A stretch of DNA of 33,912 nt from Patescibacteria group bacterium (lineage in GTDB: Bacteria; Patescibacteriota; Minisyncoccia; Phycocordibacterales; DATDWN01), in the NCBI GenBank assembly GCA_040384485.1, contig JAZKJH010000007.1, positions 1 to 33,912 of the forward strand, written 5' to 3'. Positions 391 through 7,987 of this stretch are shown one piece after another. The stretch's first letter is position 1, and each line of letters starts with the position of its first letter. The position numbers and the translations under genes are program-made. Under the pieces are notes generated by a model, which saw only the letters and a list, made by a program, of their open reading frames with translations, searched no databases and was not told the DNA's origin.

Positions 391-397
391 CAAACAA

Positions 398-423
398 CAA
401 ACCGCGAAAGCGGTTTTTGTTTT
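398..423 (+). terminator. Intrinsic terminator after tRNA-Leu
   Basis: AAACCGC-GAAA-GCGGTTT hairpin followed by a T-rich tract. Confidence 0.8.
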
Positions 424-573
424 GGGACAAGGAGAAAGCTCTGGGGGAGCTTTCGTGGAGACTCGAAGCCTGTTTGAGATATTTTTTGGATTTCAAGAAC
501 AAAAATATCCAAACATGGGTACTGATCCTGTAAGGATCTAGTCGGCCTAAAAAATTATTCCTGACCGAGTCTC
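421..573. repeat. tRNA-associated repeat element, copy 2
   Basis: GGAGACTCGAA (457-467) is the exact reverse complement of tRNA-Leu TTCGAGTCTCC (371-381). It is followed by AAGCC, hairpins, the core GTCGGCCTAAAAAATTATTCCTGACC (541-566) and the direct T-arm copy CGAGTCTC (566-573). Confidence 0.7.
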
Positions 574-657
574 AGAATTTTCCCTCCTTACCCACTAACT
601 TTACATGTATATTTATATGTGTTATTATTTTCATGGACACTTTTAGAAAGGACAGCT

Positions 658-909
658 ATGAGACCTGGACCAGAAATCCTTGTGCAGCCAGTCGTCGAAC
701 ATGTCAGAAACGCCCCATCACGCTTGATGGGTATCGGTGCGACTCTCATGATTATTGGGCTATTCTTGATGATGGCCTTAGTTGCGGAAAATAGTTCCGT
801 ACTGAATTACATCGGCTTCATAGGGGTAGTTATGATGCTCATCGGAATCATCACAACTGGCATCGGCTACACAATTCTTGAACGCCGATGGAAAAAACAA
901 GGGCAATAA
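658..909 (+). CDS. Small two-TM hypothetical membrane protein (83 aa)
   Basis: In-frame ATG at 658 preceded by AAAGGA (647-652), preferred over the track start at 619; two hydrophobic helices and a basic C-tail. Confidence 0.7.
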   Translation: MRPGPEILVQPVVEHVRNAPSRLMGIGATLMIIGLFLMMALVAENSSVLNYIGFIGVVMMLIGIITTGIGYTILERRWKKQGQ

Positions 910-955
910 CGCCACGAGGAGTCATAGACCATTCGAACAAAGGAGATACAGCAAC

Positions 956-1165
956 ATGACCCAAGTTTGCGCAGCATGTGCCACCGACAAAAACAGTCAT
1001 CCACTTCCTGAAGCTGGAAGTGCAGTGAACAAAGTAATGCTCAATAGTTCACGCGAACAACTACTTCATATGTTTCAGGAACATGACCTTGGTTCCGGAG
1101 CATCCGATTGTGGATGTGTGGTGATGGATTATCAACTCTATCCCTGCAAAGAACACTCGAAGTAG
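956..1165 (+). CDS. Small Cys/His-rich hypothetical protein, possibly zinc-binding (69 aa)
   Basis: ATG at 956 preceded by AGGAG (941-945); CAAC, CGC and CKEH motifs; the stop is directly followed by a terminator hairpin. Confidence 0.65.
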   Translation: MTQVCAACATDKNSHPLPEAGSAVNKVMLNSSREQLLHMFQEHDLGSGASDCGCVVMDYQLYPCKEHSK

Positions 1166-1218
1166 TACCCCCGCCCGACAAACACAACCCGTGCTTCGTC
1201 CGGCGGGTTTTATTTTAT
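1166..1218 (+). repeat. Repeated bulged hairpin/terminator, copy A
   Basis: TACCCCCGCCCGACAAACACAACCCGTGCTTCGTCCGGCGGGTTTTATTTTAT; near-identical to 2089-2138. Confidence 0.85.
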
Positions 1219-1247
1219 TTGACAAAAGCACATAAATGTGCTAACAT
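1219..1247 (+). promoter_or_regulatory. Sigma70-type promoter with a palindrome in the spacer
   Basis: TTGACA (1219-1224), 17-nt spacer, TAACAT (1242-1247); AGCACAT-AA-ATGTGCT dyad at 1227-1242. Confidence 0.7.
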
Positions 1248-1264
1248 AAGTAGAGGAGATAACA

Positions 1265-1528
1265 ATGTTTGGAACACCGACTTTGAACAGACTGTTGTCT
1301 GGGAACCCGGTAGAGTTTGAAGGGATTAAAGTATTCCCTGTGAAAAACAGCGAAGGCAAGGTTACCACAGGGGAATCACTAAACCCTGGTGATGTGTACA
1401 TTGCTGAAAGAAACGGACCACCGCTACTGCTCACTGCCCAAAGAATCGACTTCTCGGCAGGAATAGTACTTCCTGATTGTAAGCAATATCCGTTCAACTT
1501 CGACGAGTGCGTCAAGGTTCGGTTCTAA
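1265..1528 (+). CDS. Hypothetical protein (87 aa)
   Basis: GAGGAG SD at 1253-1258, own promoter, beta-rich globular-looking sequence; no recognised family. Confidence 0.75.
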   Translation: MFGTPTLNRLLSGNPVEFEGIKVFPVKNSEGKVTTGESLNPGDVYIAERNGPPLLLTAQRIDFSAGIVLPDCKQYPFNFDECVKVRF

Positions 1529-1579
1529 AACAACTCGCAACTGAGCAGAGGACTGCTCACCTTCAACAGGAGTTTGCTT

Positions 1580-1798
1580 ATGGCACTGTTTACGTTCTTT
1601 TCCTGGACCTTTTACATCTCATGCATTGTGATCGCCCTGATTTCAGAAGACAGCTTCATAATCAGGGGTGCACCGGTAACGAGCCGATTCATTCGTGCAT
1701 TCGTAATCGCGACTCTGATACCGTGCATGGGTATCGTGTTCTACATCTTCGGCCTGGTGGGAAAATTCCTACTCTTGCCGATCACTTCTTTGTTTTAA
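1580..1798 (+). CDS. Small two-TM hypothetical membrane protein (72 aa)
   Basis: ATG at 1580 with AGGAG at 1568-1572; two hydrophobic segments. Confidence 0.65.
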   Translation: MALFTFFSWTFYISCIVIALISEDSFIIRGAPVTSRFIRAFVIATLIPCMGIVFYIFGLVGKFLLLPITSLF

Positions 1799-1810
1799 AG
1801 GGAGAAACCA

Positions 1811-2083
1811 ATGGAGTCACCGAGAGAAGTACTCGAGAAAATTGAGTTTGCGATTAAAACAAGAAATGCCGCTGTAGCCAATCTGAGCTACGAAGAGATC
1901 TGTTACCTTTTGAAATTCTATTGCGGTTTCAACCCAAAGACCGCAGAAGGCATCAAATCACGAATCGCGGACGGGCTACCCAGCCTGAAAGACGTTTCCG
2001 TTCAGATCACAGATGGCGGCCTCAATCCCACAGTCCGGTTTACAATGCCGGATGGGCAAAGAAAAACCTTCCGTTACTGCTAA
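1811..2083 (+). CDS. Hypothetical protein (90 aa)
   Basis: GGAGA SD at 1801-1805, 12 nt after the previous stop; followed by a terminator. Confidence 0.75.
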   Translation: MESPREVLEKIEFAIKTRNAAVANLSYEEICYLLKFYCGFNPKTAEGIKSRIADGLPSLKDVSVQITDGGLNPTVRFTMPDGQRKTFRYC

Positions 2084-2088
2084 CCACT

Positions 2089-2138
2089 TACCCCGCCGAC
2101 AACACAACCCGTGCTTTGTCAGGCGGGTTTTATTTTAT
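2089..2138 (+). repeat. Repeated bulged hairpin/terminator, copy B
   Basis: TACCCCGCCGACAACACAACCCGTGCTTTGTCAGGCGGGTTTTATTTTAT; differs from copy A by three single-base gaps and two substitutions. Confidence 0.85.
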
Positions 2139-2167
2139 GCCCAAATAACCTATATCTAAATTACAAA

Positions 2168-2196
2168 TTGACTTCCATTTTTAAATCACTTAATCT
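2168..2196 (+). promoter_or_regulatory. Sigma70-type promoter
   Basis: TTGACT (2168-2173), 17 nt, TAATCT (2191-2196). Confidence 0.65.
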
Positions 2197-2212
2197 TGGA
2201 TAGGAGGTCGCG

Positions 2213-2374
2213 ATGAGAAATATCGTTTTTGCTATTGAGGTCATTACTGGTTCGGCCGGGATTGTCCTTGGAATACTCGGACTAGTAGGATCGGCGGCGC
2301 CACTCATGCTTTATGGCGGAGCCTTGCAAGCCTTGGCTTTCGGACTAACACGAGAAAGACGAGGGCACTGGTGA
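2213..2374 (+). CDS. 53-aa hydrophobic microprotein not in the ORF track
   Basis: Hand translation MRNIVFAIEVITGSAGIVLGILGLVGSAAPLMLYGGALQALAFGLTRERRGHW*; AGGAGGT SD at 2202-2208, own promoter and terminator. Confidence 0.7.
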   Translation: MRNIVFAIEVITGSAGIVLGILGLVGSAAPLMLYGGALQALAFGLTRERRGHW

Positions 2375-2387
2375 CAATTCTTGAACC

Positions 2388-2412
2388 CTGCCGGCATATG
2401 TCGGCAGTTTTT
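2388..2412 (+). terminator. Intrinsic terminator
   Basis: CTGCCGGCA-TA-TGTCGGCAG followed by TTTTT. Confidence 0.75.
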
Positions 2413-2429
2413 ATTTATTAGAATAAACC

Positions 2430-2458
2430 TTGACAAATTAATTCTAATATGTTATCAA
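2430..2458 (+). promoter_or_regulatory. Sigma70-type promoter
   Basis: TTGACA (2430-2435), 17 nt, TG-n-TATCAA (imperfect -10). Confidence 0.5.
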
Positions 2459-2476
2459 TTGTTACAGGAGACCTAT

Positions 2477-2866
2477 ATGCCTTGCAGATCCGATTACCTC
2501 GAACCAACAACACGTGAACAGGAACTTCAGCGCGCTGCCAAACTTTTGGTGTATGTGCGCAGGAAGATGGGAATTGAACCTGAGGACTGGGCTTTGTCTC
2601 AGTCTGGGAACATCTACGCCAATGACGACCGAGCTGTTATTGAACTTTGCGCAGCGTTGACGTCGATGACGTCGGACGTCCTTGAGACGATCGTCTACAA
2701 CCCCCATGATGCCGAGTCTCGCGACTTGGCTGATTGGTGGGAGGTTCACCAGGCGGCAGATGCTGAGCGAGAGAAACGTGAAGCTGAGCAGGCGCAGGAC
2801 GAGGAAACCAAAAAGTCCGCGCTCGCGAAGCTCTCACCAGCAGAACGTAAAGCCTTGAAAGTGTAG
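2477..2866 (+). CDS. Hypothetical helical protein, possibly phage-related (129 aa)
   Basis: ATG at 2477 with AGGAG at 2466-2470 (the track start at 2381 overlaps a terminator and a promoter); begins MPCRSDY, contains LADWWEVHQ and a charged coiled-coil tail; GC-rich. Confidence 0.75.
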   Translation: MPCRSDYLEPTTREQELQRAAKLLVYVRRKMGIEPEDWALSQSGNIYANDDRAVIELCAALTSMTSDVLETIVYNPHDAESRDLADWWEVHQAADAEREKREAEQAQDEETKKSALAKLSPAERKALKV

Positions 2867-2880
2867 GCTCCGAACAAACG

Positions 2881-2917
2881 GCCACCACGTCAAATTGACG
2901 TGGTGGCTATTATTTTA
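2881..2917 (+). terminator. Perfect 13-bp inverted repeat, probable terminator
   Basis: GCCACCACGTCAA-A-TTGACGTGGTGGC then TATTATTTT. Confidence 0.7.
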
Positions 2918-2918
2918 C

Positions 2919-2947
2919 TTGACAAACTATTTCCATTATGATATCCT
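2919..2947 (+). promoter_or_regulatory. Sigma70-type promoter driving a non-coding region
   Basis: TTGACA (2919-2924), 17 nt, extended TG-n-TATCCT (2939-2947). Confidence 0.7.
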
Positions 2948-2953
2948 TAAAGG

Positions 2954-3150
2954 TAATAGTATTTCATCTTACTTTCGGGTCAGTTTGAGAATTCAAGGAA
3001 ATCAGTATCTCGTATCTATTCAGATCAATTAGACACTAGCTAACTTTCAGGCAATCACACAGATTACGCTTAAAGCACTATATATCAAAGAGGCCGTTCG
3101 AAACTTGGCTAGATATTGGTTTCCTTAAATTCTAAATCAGAAATACTACT
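2954..3150 (+). ncRNA. Candidate structured ncRNA of unknown family
   Basis: No ORF in the track. The ends pair (TAGTATTTC 2957-2965 / GAAATACTA 3140-3148); 23-position stem 2988-3010 / 3111-3133 with 20 Watson-Crick pairs, 2 G-U and 1 mismatch; flanked by a promoter and a terminator. Confidence 0.65.
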
Positions 3151-3156
3151 CAAAAC

Positions 3157-3182
3157 AAAGCCTGCATTTCGCAGGTTTTTGT
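3157..3182 (+). terminator. Intrinsic terminator
   Basis: AAAGCCTGC-ATTTC-GCAGGTTTTT. Confidence 0.75.
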
Positions 3183-3206
3183 CTATATAAATGATATAAT
3201 TTATCT

Positions 3207-3587
3207 ATGAAAAGGAAACTAGTTATTGAAATAATTCTTTCTATTGCATTTGTTTTTGTTGGGACTTATTTTATTTTTGGACACTTAGAACACATATCCC
3301 AATTCTGGAATTCACAGAACATCTGGAGCCTTATTCTTTCTCTAGGTTGGGTTGTTGTGGCTAGTGGATACTATCATCAAGGTTGGCTCATACATGAAAA
3401 ACACAATGCCAAAAATGTATCTCTACTCCTACCTGTATCTGTTTTCTTTATACAATGTATTTTGTTTATAAAAGGAATTTATTACGACGATTGGTCACTT
3501 ATTTGGGGTGCTCTTGTTGTAAACTCAGGTGTATCCTTTTCTATTTACCATATTATTAAATACCGATTTTTGATTAAAAAACCTTAG
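3207..3587 (+). CDS. Four-TM membrane protein, SemiSWEET/PQ-loop-like
   Basis: YYHQGWLIHEKHNAKNVS resembles the PQ-xx-K...A-x-D-x-S loop of the 3-helix PQ-loop unit, preceded by an extra N-terminal TM; AT-rich, with TATAAT 6 nt before the ATG. Confidence 0.5.
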   Translation: MKRKLVIEIILSIAFVFVGTYFIFGHLEHISQFWNSQNIWSLILSLGWVVVASGYYHQGWLIHEKHNAKNVSLLLPVSVFFIQCILFIKGIYYDDWSLIWGALVVNSGVSFSIYHIIKYRFLIKKP

Positions 3588-5591: not shown

Positions 5592-5891
5592 TTATCCTCT
5601 TAGATCCAATATATTCCCTGCCTCTCCTTCTATTTCGCTTGGGGCTATCCCAAAAGTTGCGAGTATAAAACGGATAATCCCGTATACTGAAAACATTATT
5701 ACCATACCGACTATCCCCCACAAAATAGAATTTCTAGCTTCTATACGCGTCTGACCTTTATCTCCTGGATCTGTTTTTAGAAACATAACTATACCGTAAA
5801 TAAAATATAGAAATGCCAGAGCAAAAACGAGAAGAATGAGCGGATTCAAAATCAAATTATTTACCTTGTATAGGAAAGGAACGATAGTCAT
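5592..5891 (-). CDS. VirB2/TrbC-like (T4SS-type) pilin family protein
   Basis: Two hydrophobic helices joined by a charged loop: FIYGIVMF...EARNSILWGIVGMVIM; no obvious signal peptide. Confidence 0.7.
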   Translation of the reverse strand: MTIVPFLYKVNNLILNPLILLVFALAFLYFIYGIVMFLKTDPGDKGQTRIEARNSILWGIVGMVIMFSVYGIIRFILATFGIAPSEIEGEAGNILDLRG

Positions 5892-5910
5892 AATTTGATT
5901 TTAGGTAGTT

Positions 5911-6261
5911 TTATTCAAGACCAGGAACAGTAGGGATAGTCACTGAGTTTCCTTCAATACCAAGTGTTGACTGCAACCATGCGATCAAACCGTAGATACT
6001 CACCATAACTGTAAGAGCAATAACACCGTAGATCATTATGCTCTTTCCTTCTGCAGCTGCCTTTGCATCTCCTGCAGCTCTGATGTATTTGATAAGACCC
6101 CAGAAGAAGTAAACTAGCGCTAATGCAAACAATATAGGCAACAAACTGTTTATAATGCCACCAATACTGTCTACAAGTCTCTCAATACCACCTAGATCTG
6201 CCTCTTGTGCCAAACCTATAGCTGGGGCGAAAGATAATACTGTATAAATAAATTTCTTCAT
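5911..6261 (-). CDS. VirB2/TrbC-like pilin family protein
   Basis: Signal peptide plus FFWGLIKYIRAAGD...EGKSIMIYGVIAL. Confidence 0.75.
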   Translation of the reverse strand: MKKFIYTVLSFAPAIGLAQEADLGGIERLVDSIGGIINSLLPILFALALVYFFWGLIKYIRAAGDAKAAAEGKSIMIYGVIALTVMVSIYGLIAWLQSTLGIEGNSVTIPTVPGLE

Positions 6262-6333
6262 AAATTATGCTTAATTAATTATTATGTGTAATGTTGTTAA
6301 TTATAGTACAAAAAACCGTAAATACAAGGGTTT

Positions 6334-6342
6334 TGTGGATAA
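6334..6342 (-). promoter_or_regulatory. Consensus DnaA box
   Basis: TGTGGATAA is the reverse complement of TTATCCACA; intergenic, just upstream of the putative promoter of the 5911-6261 pilin; single copy. Confidence 0.4.
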
Positions 6343-6365
6343 GTAAAGGGAACTTCCAGAACTAC

Positions 6366-6737
6366 TTACCAAGTTATAACCCCCACGTTTGGTATCTGAG
6401 AGTTAGGTGTCATAACATTAGGGTTTGGGTCTATACTAATCAAGTCACCCAAGAACAGCAGAATGCCCCACCATGAAGCCAGAACGAAAAGTGCAATAAC
6501 TCCCCACATCATCTTCTTTCGCCCTTCCTCTCGAGCTTTATCGTCGTTTGACTTCAAGATGGACTGTGCTACACCCCAAAAGAAGTACACAAGGGCTATG
6601 GCGAAGATAAGGTTATCCAAAAGCTGAAGAATCCCATAAAACTCCATCAAAAGATTTCTAAATCCCCCCAATGCACCGAAAGCCATAGCTGGGGTTAAAA
6701 CTAAAGCCAAACTTGCTAATATATATTTGTTTTTCAT
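6366..6737 (-). CDS. VirB2/TrbC-like pilin family protein
   Basis: Signal peptide plus FFWGVAQSILKS...EEGRKKMMWGVIAL. Confidence 0.75.
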   Translation of the reverse strand: MKNKYILASLALVLTPAMAFGALGGFRNLLMEFYGILQLLDNLIFAIALVYFFWGVAQSILKSNDDKAREEGRKKMMWGVIALFVLASWWGILLFLGDLISIDPNPNVMTPNSQIPNVGVITW

Positions 6738-6770
6738 AATTATAATTATATTGTAAATAAAAATAAAACT

Positions 6771-7142
6771 CTATCTTGGCCCTGTTGGCAACAGGATACT
6801 GTTCGGATTCGGGTTCTTGTCACCTATCTCCAAATCACTTGAAACAAGCCCGATGATGACTCTGAATGTGAACAGGACAAACAAAGCAAGTAAGCCCCAC
6901 AACATGTAGTTTCTGCCGTTTTTAATACCATCGGCACTGTCGGAATGTAAAATAAACTTGGACATCCCCCAAAAAAAGAAAACGATGGCAAGACTGACAA
7001 GTATGGGTATTAGTATGTTTATAATCTCAATCACCTCCATCACAATACCTTTAAAAGTGCTCCCACTAAGAGAAAAATCAGCTGCCAAAGCATAGGCTGG
7101 AACTAACAAAAACAAAAAACTCAAAAATATTTTATTCTTCAT
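6771..7142 (-). CDS. VirB2/TrbC-like pilin family protein
   Basis: Signal peptide (AYALA) plus FFWGMSKFILHS...NGRNYMLWGLLAL. Confidence 0.75.
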   Translation of the reverse strand: MKNKIFLSFLFLLVPAYALAADFSLSGSTFKGIVMEVIEIINILIPILVSLAIVFFFWGMSKFILHSDSADGIKNGRNYMLWGLLALFVLFTFRVIIGLVSSDLEIGDKNPNPNSILLPTGPR

Positions 7143-7144
7143 TT

Positions 7145-7561
7145 TTATTTTGTAAGTGATTCAACGGTCCTTTGGACAACTTCTGATATAGCAGTGGCGC
7201 CAAGCAAAATGCCCGCACCGACCAGTGACCATAGCAACCGTTGCTTAGCTTTTTCAATTTCCGCGGGTTTACCCTGTGCTGTGATGAAAGTGAAGCCCGC
7301 CCAGATAATCCAAAGCACTACTGCTACGGCTGCAATGGGCATAATAACGTTTTTAAGTATGAGTGTAATAAGGCTCATAATAGTACAGTTGTCGCCGCAA
7401 TCCACTGGGTTAGTAAGGTTAACTCCAATCGTTGTAGTTTTTGGGTTCTCTTGTCCTCCCCCCCCCTCTTGATTTGGAACATTCACGGCACCTGCAAAAA
7501 CTGGTAACAAAAATAGTCCGAACAAAAAAACTCCTAATAATTTATTTTTTAAATTAATCAT
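7145..7561 (-). CDS. VirB2/TrbC-like pilin family protein
   Basis: Signal peptide, LTNP motif, Cys pair, IIWAGFTFITAQGKPAEIEKAKQRLLWSLVG. Confidence 0.8.
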   Translation of the reverse strand: MINLKNKLLGVFLFGLFLLPVFAGAVNVPNQEGGGGQENPKTTTIGVNLTNPVDCGDNCTIMSLITLILKNVIMPIAAVAVVLWIIWAGFTFITAQGKPAEIEKAKQRLLWSLVGAGILLGATAISEVVQRTVESLTK

Positions 7562-7564
7562 ATT

Positions 7565-7987
7565 TTAAAATATATCTTTTAATTCATCCTTTAACAGACT
7601 GCTTGTTATTAAGTTTACAATAAGCCAAGCTCCCAGGATTACCGCTATACCTATTGCTACCTTTTTTAGCATTTCTTTAGCTTTTGTTCTTTCTCCAGGA
7701 CTGTCTGCATACACCATTATTTTAAAACCGGCATATGCTATCACCACCACAGAAAAAGATATAGCTAAAGTGGTGCCCCAATTTACGGCCTTCTGAATTG
7801 CTGCTATCAAATCATCAAAATCACATTCGCCTGGTTTACCGTCACATTCATAGACTAAACCACCTTTATTTTCCGTTGCAGCAGACTCATCAGCAAAAAC
7901 CAGAAATGGAAAGAAAAAAAGAAAAAATATAGATGCAAAAACAAAAATATTTGATACAACAGTCTTCAATGCTAGAGTTTTTGTCAT
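7565..7987 (-). CDS. VirB2/TrbC-like pilin family protein
   Basis: Signal peptide, GGLVYEC...CDFDDL, IAYAGFKIM...SPGERTKAKEML...GAWLIV. Confidence 0.8.
   Translation of the reverse strand: MTKTLALKTVVSNIFVFASIFFLFFFPFLVFADESAATENKGGLVYECDGKPGECDFDDLIAAIQKAVNWGTTLAISFSVVVIAYAGFKIMVYADSPGERTKAKEMLKKVAIGIAVILGAWLIVNLITSSLLKDELKDIF

Follow-up and report, generated by a model that had tools for sequence, protein, structure and literature searches.

Locus and transcription signals

The stretch of DNA analyzed here (the window, 33,912 nucleotides (nt), GenBank JAZKJH010000007.1) was contig C7 of the Patescibacteria genome G000 (809 kb, 7 contigs, 94% complete). The element under study was a block on its plus strand, at 2919-3182, in which a promoter was followed by about 230 nt devoid of any credible open reading frame (ORF) and by a hairpin with a U-run. 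An earlier note, made from the letters of the window, had proposed a free, structured non-coding RNA at this place. The block is very likely a real, independently transcribed gene for a structured RNA; it probably belongs to a new, narrowly distributed family of small RNA genes and is probably expressed. The features that define the transcription unit were the following:

2880-2908 (+): intrinsic terminator of the upstream phage-like ORF (2381/2477-2866); 13-bp stem with 8 G-C pairs, then ATTATTTTAC
2919-2947 (+): sigma-70-type extended -10 promoter; -35 box TTGACA at 2919-2924, TG at 2939-2940, -10 box TATCCT at 2942-2947
2953-3182 (+): predicted RNA including its terminator, about 230 nt; z-score of the fold -5.43; metatranscriptome contig X2 aligned to 2953-3153
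3158-3182 (+): terminator hairpin with a GCCUGC/GCAGG core, then UUUUUGU, in the plus-strand fold

The promoter was present as the earlier note had read it, with a 17-nt spacer between the boxes, and proved to be of the extended -10 type (score 10/12 in the promoter scan, TG present). Promoter-like sites per se were found at chance level (6 vs. 4.7 +/- 2.2 expected), but CTTGACA and TATGATA were invariant and equally spaced in G000 and in its two full homologues, genome G007 and metagenome contig L080. The -10 hexamers of the three copies were TATCCT, TACACT and TAGTAT, each preceded by TGn. From the position of the -10 box, we infer a 5' end of the RNA near 2953-2955. At the other end, the proposed terminator was visible in the plus-strand fold as a GC-cored hairpin followed by UUUUUGU, while the terminator scan reported this hairpin (3161-3175) in the minus-strand reading only. 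The homologues carried a stronger hairpin and a U-run at the same position, of unrelated sequence. Conserved -35 and -10 boxes and an intrinsic terminator were therefore found around a conserved block, as in an independent sigma-70 unit, and the RNA is probably transcribed on the plus strand from the extended -10 promoter to the intrinsic terminator. The terminator at 2880-2908 shields the gene against read-through from the upstream ORF.

The sole ORF over the RNA was a mechanical frame of 45 amino acids (aa) with a TTG start (2895-3032), which began upstream of the promoter and inside the preceding terminator.

Run X2, an RNA library of a freshwater metatranscriptome, contained a 215-nt contig (depth 9) whose bases 4-204 aligned to 2953-3153 (8 mismatches, 4 gaps). 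Its start lay within about 3 nt of that predicted from the -10 box, and it did not include the promoter, which, being conserved in the homologues, should have aligned if present. The last 11 bases of the contig did not match and presumably belong to the terminator of the relative itself. It was taken as a hint of expression, not as proof.

Homologues, predicted fold and strand

Among 61 related genomes searched by BLASTN, G007 gave the sole real match beyond G000 (76% identity over 159 nt, E 2.7e-18); 49 genomes matched at E <= 1 and, besides G000 and G007, showed only chance-level matches of 15-42 nt (E >= 0.0016). Covariance models were built from two sequences (R1) and from three (R2). R1 scored G007 at 161.7 bits and L080 at 124.2 bits, and detected the RNA in 2 of the 41 genomes of the genus and in 1 of 151 genomes of the sampled order, G000 itself. 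The identical two strong matches were returned by R2 among 40 genus genomes, together with three weak ones (19-22 bits, E 0.09-0.53) that were treated as noise; in the family, R2 found the RNA in 2/63 genomes.

Pattern scans extended the search to other contigs. The first scan of metagenome contigs gave 0 matches, its pattern being too strict (L080 deviates at base 12); the second gave 9 loci, one of them real by covariance model (L080). Fifty loci were obtained from genome contigs, of which L096 alone was real; its score was identical to that of the G007 copy and it was counted as the same homologue. Four scans of viral contigs returned 1, 3, 1 and 0 loci, all chance matches: the first four loci, scored by the model, yielded one match, a chance helix at 18 bits, and locus L159 lay inside a 110-aa ORF and had no helix. 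The viral scans thus gave no evidence of the RNA being phage-borne. Three full sequences were known in all (G000, G007 and L080), with a homologous block that spanned from the -35 box to just short of the terminator. Logan contigs from four public runs (freshwater, groundwater, soil) supplied further partial relatives; those of runs X3, X4 and X5 were partial look-alikes only, and the parts of the window left uncovered in these three runs carry no information.

The plus-strand RNA had a predicted energy of -57.0 kcal/mol, vs. -36.3 +/- 3.8 for shuffled sequences, and none of 200 shuffles was as stable. The same architecture was obtained in the three single-sequence folds (z-scores -5.43 for G000, -6.89 for G007 and -6.60 for L080), and the consensus fold agreed. 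In these models the RNA is a long rod in which the terminal stem P1 is followed by a variable internal loop and the long helix P2, and beyond these lie a three-way junction, where the side hairpin P3 branches off, and the apical arm P4-P6:

2957-2965 (+): P1 terminal stem, 5' strand; pairs with 3140-3148, 9 bp, 100% complementary
2966-2987 (+): 5' side of an asymmetric internal loop (3' side 3134-3139); size and sequence vary among homologues
2988-3010 (+): P2 helix, 5' strand; pairs with 3111-3133
3012-3036 (+): P3 side hairpin at the three-way junction (3012-3018 with 3030-3036); loop of variable length, UUCG in L080
3037-3111 (+): apical arm (P4-P6 and tip hairpin), from the consensus folds
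3037-3043 with 3105-3111 (+): P4, UAGCUAA with UUGGCUA; stacked on P2, which gives the three-way junction
3045-3048 with 3100-3103 (+): P5, UUUC with GAAA
3049-3052 with 3093-3096 (+): P6, AGGC with GCCG (GCCU in the architecture common to the three copies)
3068-3069 with 3075-3076 (+): tip hairpin of 2 bp; loop UUAAA in G000, GAAA in both homologues
3111-3133 (+): P2 helix, 3' strand; pairs with 2988-3010
3140-3148 (+): P1 terminal stem, 3' strand; pairs with 2957-2965

Both long-range pairings of the earlier note, between the two ends and over 23 positions, were recovered as P1 and P2. P1 had 9 bp in G000 (UAGUAUUUC/GAAAUACUA), 10 bp in L080 (UUUCAUCUCU/AGAGAUGAAA) and 8 bp in G007 (UAUUUUCU/AGAAAAUA), lengths reached by 29, 31 and 41 of 2000 shuffles respectively; the stem was rebuilt from different sequence in each genome, which supports the fold. 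All but one of the 23 positions of P2 were paired; the exception was a C·A mismatch (2994·3127), and two of the 22 pairs were G·U (3002·3119, 3005·3116). The inner 12 bp of P2 (2999-3010 with 3111-3122) were invariant in the three full copies, both G·U pairs included, and this inner part showed zero differences in the contigs of runs X2-X5 where covered. Over the whole helix, 17 of the 22 consensus pairs never varied and 95.5% of cells were paired. The apical arm kept the unpaired stretches CAAUCAMAC..AUUA and AAAGAG in all three homologues. The four small hairpins drawn in the earlier note fared less well: their sequences lay where it had placed them, but the homologues favored other pairings for three of the four, and in the comparative model P3, P4 and P6 took the place of the TTAG/CTAA and GCC/GGC hairpins.

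By eye, a 7-codon frame with a TTG start and a TAA or TGA stop was seen 9-12 nt past AGAGG in all three RNA copies (window 3105-3128 (+) and the equivalent position of L080 and L011), on the 3' strand of P2. Since it sits within the 22-bp duplex, it would be most simply explained by conservation of the P2 helix.

The fold and the plus strand were supported by better pairing at the consensus positions and by variants in the runs that preserve plus-strand pairs. In the consensus structure 95% of cells were paired, vs. 27-47% after the partners were slid by 1-3 columns. Read on the plus strand, the consensus pairs of the three copies comprised 3/4/6 G·U pairs and 2/2/3 mismatches; on the minus strand there were 1/2/2 G·U pairs and 4/4/7 mismatches. 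Three G·U pairs were invariant across the three full copies. Four variants in the runs had both pairing partners covered: 2990 A>G (A-U to G·U), 2994 C>T (C·A to U-A), 3109 C>T (G-C to G·U) and 3041 T>C (U·G to C-G). Plus-strand pairing was kept or improved in all four, while the minus-strand helix would break in two of them.

Genomic contexts and accessory status

The three copies stood in three different neighborhoods. In G000 the gene, present in a single copy (1 match), lay past tRNA-Lys, tRNA-Leu(tag) and 2.5 kb of DNA with raised G+C. The G007 copy lay between murA and a LigT-like gene that adjoins tRNA-Leu(caa), and the L080 copy, together with a divergent ORF for a 58-aa membrane protein, in a 666-bp gap from trxB to a gene for a 388-aa surface protein. 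The corresponding sites in relatives were empty: the junction between trxB and the 388-aa gene measured about 23 nt in G000 and was practically closed in G007, and the interval from murA to tRNA-Leu(caa) in G000, the site of the RNA in G007, held two other ORFs and no RNA. The phage-like ORF upstream of the G000 copy was not found in G007, and outside G007 the LigT-like gene occurred only in G062, with no RNA after it. A raised G+C content of the L080 insertion was considered and rejected (0.415 vs. 0.417 for trxB). GyrA identity to G000 was 82-89% over the genus and 88% for G007, so that G007 is no uniquely close sister; several species without the RNA are equally near.

Judged from these sequences, the RNA appears to be encoded by an accessory gene that is confined to a small number of species within a single Patescibacteria genus, occupies another locus in every one of them and takes the form of a compact promoter-to-terminator unit. 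Given its presence in so few genomes of the genus and family and the empty sites in relatives, it is most parsimonious to assume that a small gene is gained, lost or moved as one such unit. Accessory rather than housekeeping behavior would be unusual for a structured RNA in a 0.8-Mb genome.

Several other features were observed around these loci. From tRNA-Leu(tag) to the RNA gene (window 392-2918), G+C was 0.43-0.50, vs. about 0.39 over most of the window; this region contained short ORFs only, the last of which (2477-2866) matched phage family phrog_11759 at 3.1e-25, and two terminator-like 38-nt repeats (1181-1218 and 2101-2138, 95% identical). No integrase was noticed in it, and it is possibly a decayed prophage or island. 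In G062, a minus-strand ORF after the LigT-like gene (L046, about 2030-2690) was placed between two near-identical palindromes (TGTCAAGGAC.GTCCTTGACA) and looks like a small mobile or hairpin-flanked unit. Further along the window, at 5592-7987 (-), five tandem ORFs of 99-140 aa were followed by a 430-aa ORF; by eye, each of the five showed an N-terminal hydrophobic segment and a second membrane segment.

Interpretation and comparison with known RNAs

The explanation that we favor, with moderate confidence as a whole, is a free-standing, strongly promoted RNA gene of about 210-230 nt, accessory in nature and leaning on an inferred protein-binding mechanism. The features that look selected were the strong constitutive signals, the paired ends, the invariant 12-bp duplex and the purine-rich unpaired apical stretches. 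Tentatively, the RNA may act as a stable scaffold or decoy for a protein; its partner would recognize the invariant 12-bp duplex, with the two fixed G·U pairs, beside the junction, along with the conserved apical loops, and the paired ends would guard the RNA against exonucleases. A partner protein, if found, would be the first handle on RNA-based regulation or conflict in Patescibacteria.

Several results weigh against this explanation. The minus-strand fold was comparably stable (-62.1 kcal/mol, z-score -4.81), so that energy alone leaves the strand undecided, and the covariance models also matched the reverse strand (31-39 bits). Covariation, which the earlier note had proposed as a check, was not significant in the three-sequence alignment: both sides changed in 1 of 47 pairs, and 293 of 500 shuffles reached the score. 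Most consensus pairs were invariant and hence provide no test of the structure. The RNA evidence was one assembled contig of a relative, 90-95% identical; it covered 2953-3153 like the discrete transcript that the earlier note would have looked for in metatranscriptomes, but an assembled contig is no proof of strand, ends or transcription, and RNA libraries may contain contaminating DNA. No neighbor gene was common to the three loci and no partner protein was identified among them, and the protein-binding mechanism was drawn from the pattern of conservation only.

The conserved single-stranded segments of the three homologues could also be read as seeds of a trans-acting small RNA (sRNA), in which CAAUCAMAC..AUUA and AAAGAG in the apical arm would pair with one or more messenger RNAs; a free-standing promoter-to-terminator unit is typical of such regulators. 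We consider this unlikely. A short-word BLASTN search over the G000 genome gave chance-level matches only, with no dedicated target prediction made; the best antisense match (19/21 nt, E 2.2) fell on an arm of P2 that is already paired, and about 100 of the roughly 200 nt are held in helices. The conservation pattern and the lack of above-chance complementarity in the genome favor a protein platform over a seed-pairing sRNA. A type I antitoxin was likewise rejected: the 58-aa membrane ORF was found only in L080, with no homologue in G000, and its longest run complementary to the RNA was 14 nt (G·U allowed), a length reached by 15 of 100 shuffles.

A resemblance in outline to 6S RNA was clear: a size of about 200 nt, paired 5' and 3' ends, a rod with a large internal loop, an own strong promoter and strong expression. 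Bacillus has a second 6S RNA, 6S-2, and the gene could in principle encode a second, divergent 6S-like RNA whose internal loop between P1 and P2 binds the RNA polymerase holoenzyme. This is improbable. The 6S model RF00013 (threshold 46.4 bits) had no match at E <= 10, either in 2700-3400 or in the whole G000 genome. Unlike 6S RNA, the studied RNA combines a short closing stem (8-10 bp) with a loop that varies widely in size and sequence among homologues, a three-way junction and a conserved apical arm; conservation resides in the helix and in this arm, not in a central bubble. Its patchy occurrence, in 2/41 genus and 2/63 family genomes, is not the distribution of a housekeeping RNA.

The doubt about 6S voiced in the earlier note was strengthened by another RNA, of about 180 nt, with 6S architecture and its own TATAAT promoter and terminator, at L060 1374-1553 (-), corresponding to about 68753-68932 on contig C4 of G000. 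It had BLASTN matches in 23 of the 41 genus genomes, and its relatives gave sub-threshold RF00013 matches (20.7-24 bits) over the flanks of a GGGAG...CACCCACC bubble; the G000 copy itself had no Rfam match. A five-sequence alignment showed a 19-bp closing stem, a central bubble and 14 covarying pairs overall. This RNA is the probable 6S RNA of the genus, and the existence of a better, genus-wide candidate makes 6S an unlikely identity for the RNA at 2919-3182.

There is little to recommend a palindrome acting at the DNA level (a miniature inverted-repeat transposable element (MITE), a recombination or integration site or a cruciform), with no RNA function and an incidental promoter and terminator. 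The inverted repeat is long and folds on both strands, and its surroundings in G000 and G007 are variable, prone to insertion and close to tRNA-Leu genes. Against this, the element was single-copy in G000; homology already set in 35 nt before the inverted repeat, at the -35 box, so that the homologous block was not bounded by inverted-repeat ends, contrary to the MITE ends that the earlier note had named as a possible refutation; the invariant G·U pairs are C·A mismatches on the other strand and would be meaningless in duplex DNA; and a contig from an RNA library coincided with the predicted transcript. A cis-acting leader or attenuator is scarcely credible: in G000 the RNA does lie 25 nt upstream of, and on the same strand as, a membrane-protein gene (3207-3587, 126 aa), but the next downstream gene is convergent in both G007 (murA) and L080 (the 388-aa surface-protein gene) and a terminator ends all three copies, which bears out the earlier view of a free RNA found in three neighborhoods rather than a leader.

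No known family accounted for the RNA. At gathering thresholds Rfam recognized two tRNAs only in the whole window, and at E <= 10 the region 2700-3400 gave nine sub-threshold matches, none of them over the RNA body; at the homologue loci there were one tRNA and noise only. The Rfam comparison suggested in the earlier note, 6S included, thus assigned neither the window RNA nor its homologues to a family. The best sub-threshold matches, ncr1015 (31.8 bits, cutoff 60) and the greA leader (28.4 bits, cutoff 60), lay on the minus strand at 2874-2974 and were due to the upstream terminator. As the earlier note had suspected from the lack of their motifs, transfer-messenger RNA (tmRNA), ribonuclease P (RNase P) RNA and signal recognition particle (SRP) RNA were all rejected as identities: the first two were found elsewhere in G000 (tmRNA at C4:61251-61652, 101.8 bits; RNase P RNA at C3:103587-103935, 122.4 bits), and the SRP models RF00169 and RF01854 had no match in G000, nor was any SRP family among the sub-threshold matches at 2700-3400.

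The search for SRP RNA led to an observation on the genus itself. The small SRP RNA (RF00169) was found in 0/41 genus genomes, and neither RF01854 nor the M domain of Ffh (PF02978) had a match in G000. PF00448, the GTPase domain shared by Ffh and FtsY, was detected in 0/41 genus genomes at E <= 1e-5, while controls matched in 14/14; completeness was 90% or more, with contamination no higher than 5%, in 26 of the 41 genomes. No SRP-type GTPase came up when G000 was searched in six frames for the DTAGR box. The SRP pathway was thus not detectable in the genus, neither as Ffh nor as FtsY, and no SRP RNA is expected. If real, this would mean a whole bacterial genus without SRP; in the literature listed for the group, no title or abstract opening reported such a loss.

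Close in layout were also Y RNA and YrlA, which share with the studied RNA a long stem made from both ends and a multi-hairpin module and which work with Ro (Rsr). The T-loop likeness of GTTCGAA, pointed out in the earlier note, suggested transfer RNA mimicry as in YrlA. The motif was not conserved, the homologues reading CTTACAGAAAC and CTTAGAAAT, and the TROVE/Ro domain (PF05731) was not found in G000; this identity was rejected.

Adenovirus VA RNA I, a protein decoy encoded by a mobile genome, measures about 160-200 nt, is highly expressed and has a central junction between a terminal and an apical stem. The likeness to it is at the level of function only and consists of size, stem-junction-stem layout and the idea of a decoy; VA RNA I belongs to another domain of life, with no sequence homology or demonstrated structural homology. 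By this analogy, the gene might be a cassette that moves among variable loci of Patescibacteria and encodes a decoy rich in double-stranded RNA, which would titrate an RNA-binding protein of host or phage. One of the copies, in G000, adjoins a phage-like gene. This extension is a long shot; if true, viral VA-type decoy RNAs would have a bacterial equivalent in this cassette, which would then be an RNA-only accessory or defense-related module.

To our knowledge, very few RNAs with a regulatory or structural role have been characterized in the ultra-small, uncultured Patescibacteria, and none of the titles listed for 6S, non-coding or small RNAs in this group or in the candidate phyla radiation was relevant. 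The raiA motif, OLE and ROOL are orphan structured non-coding RNAs of bacteria that were found by comparative genomics, and the studied RNA resembles such RNAs as a free-standing, structured, non-coding gene of restricted phylogenetic range. It is much smaller and simpler than OLE, ROOL and GOLLD, and it matched no family in the Rfam scan. In its organization the gene matches a known kind, the free-standing sRNA genes of bacteria.

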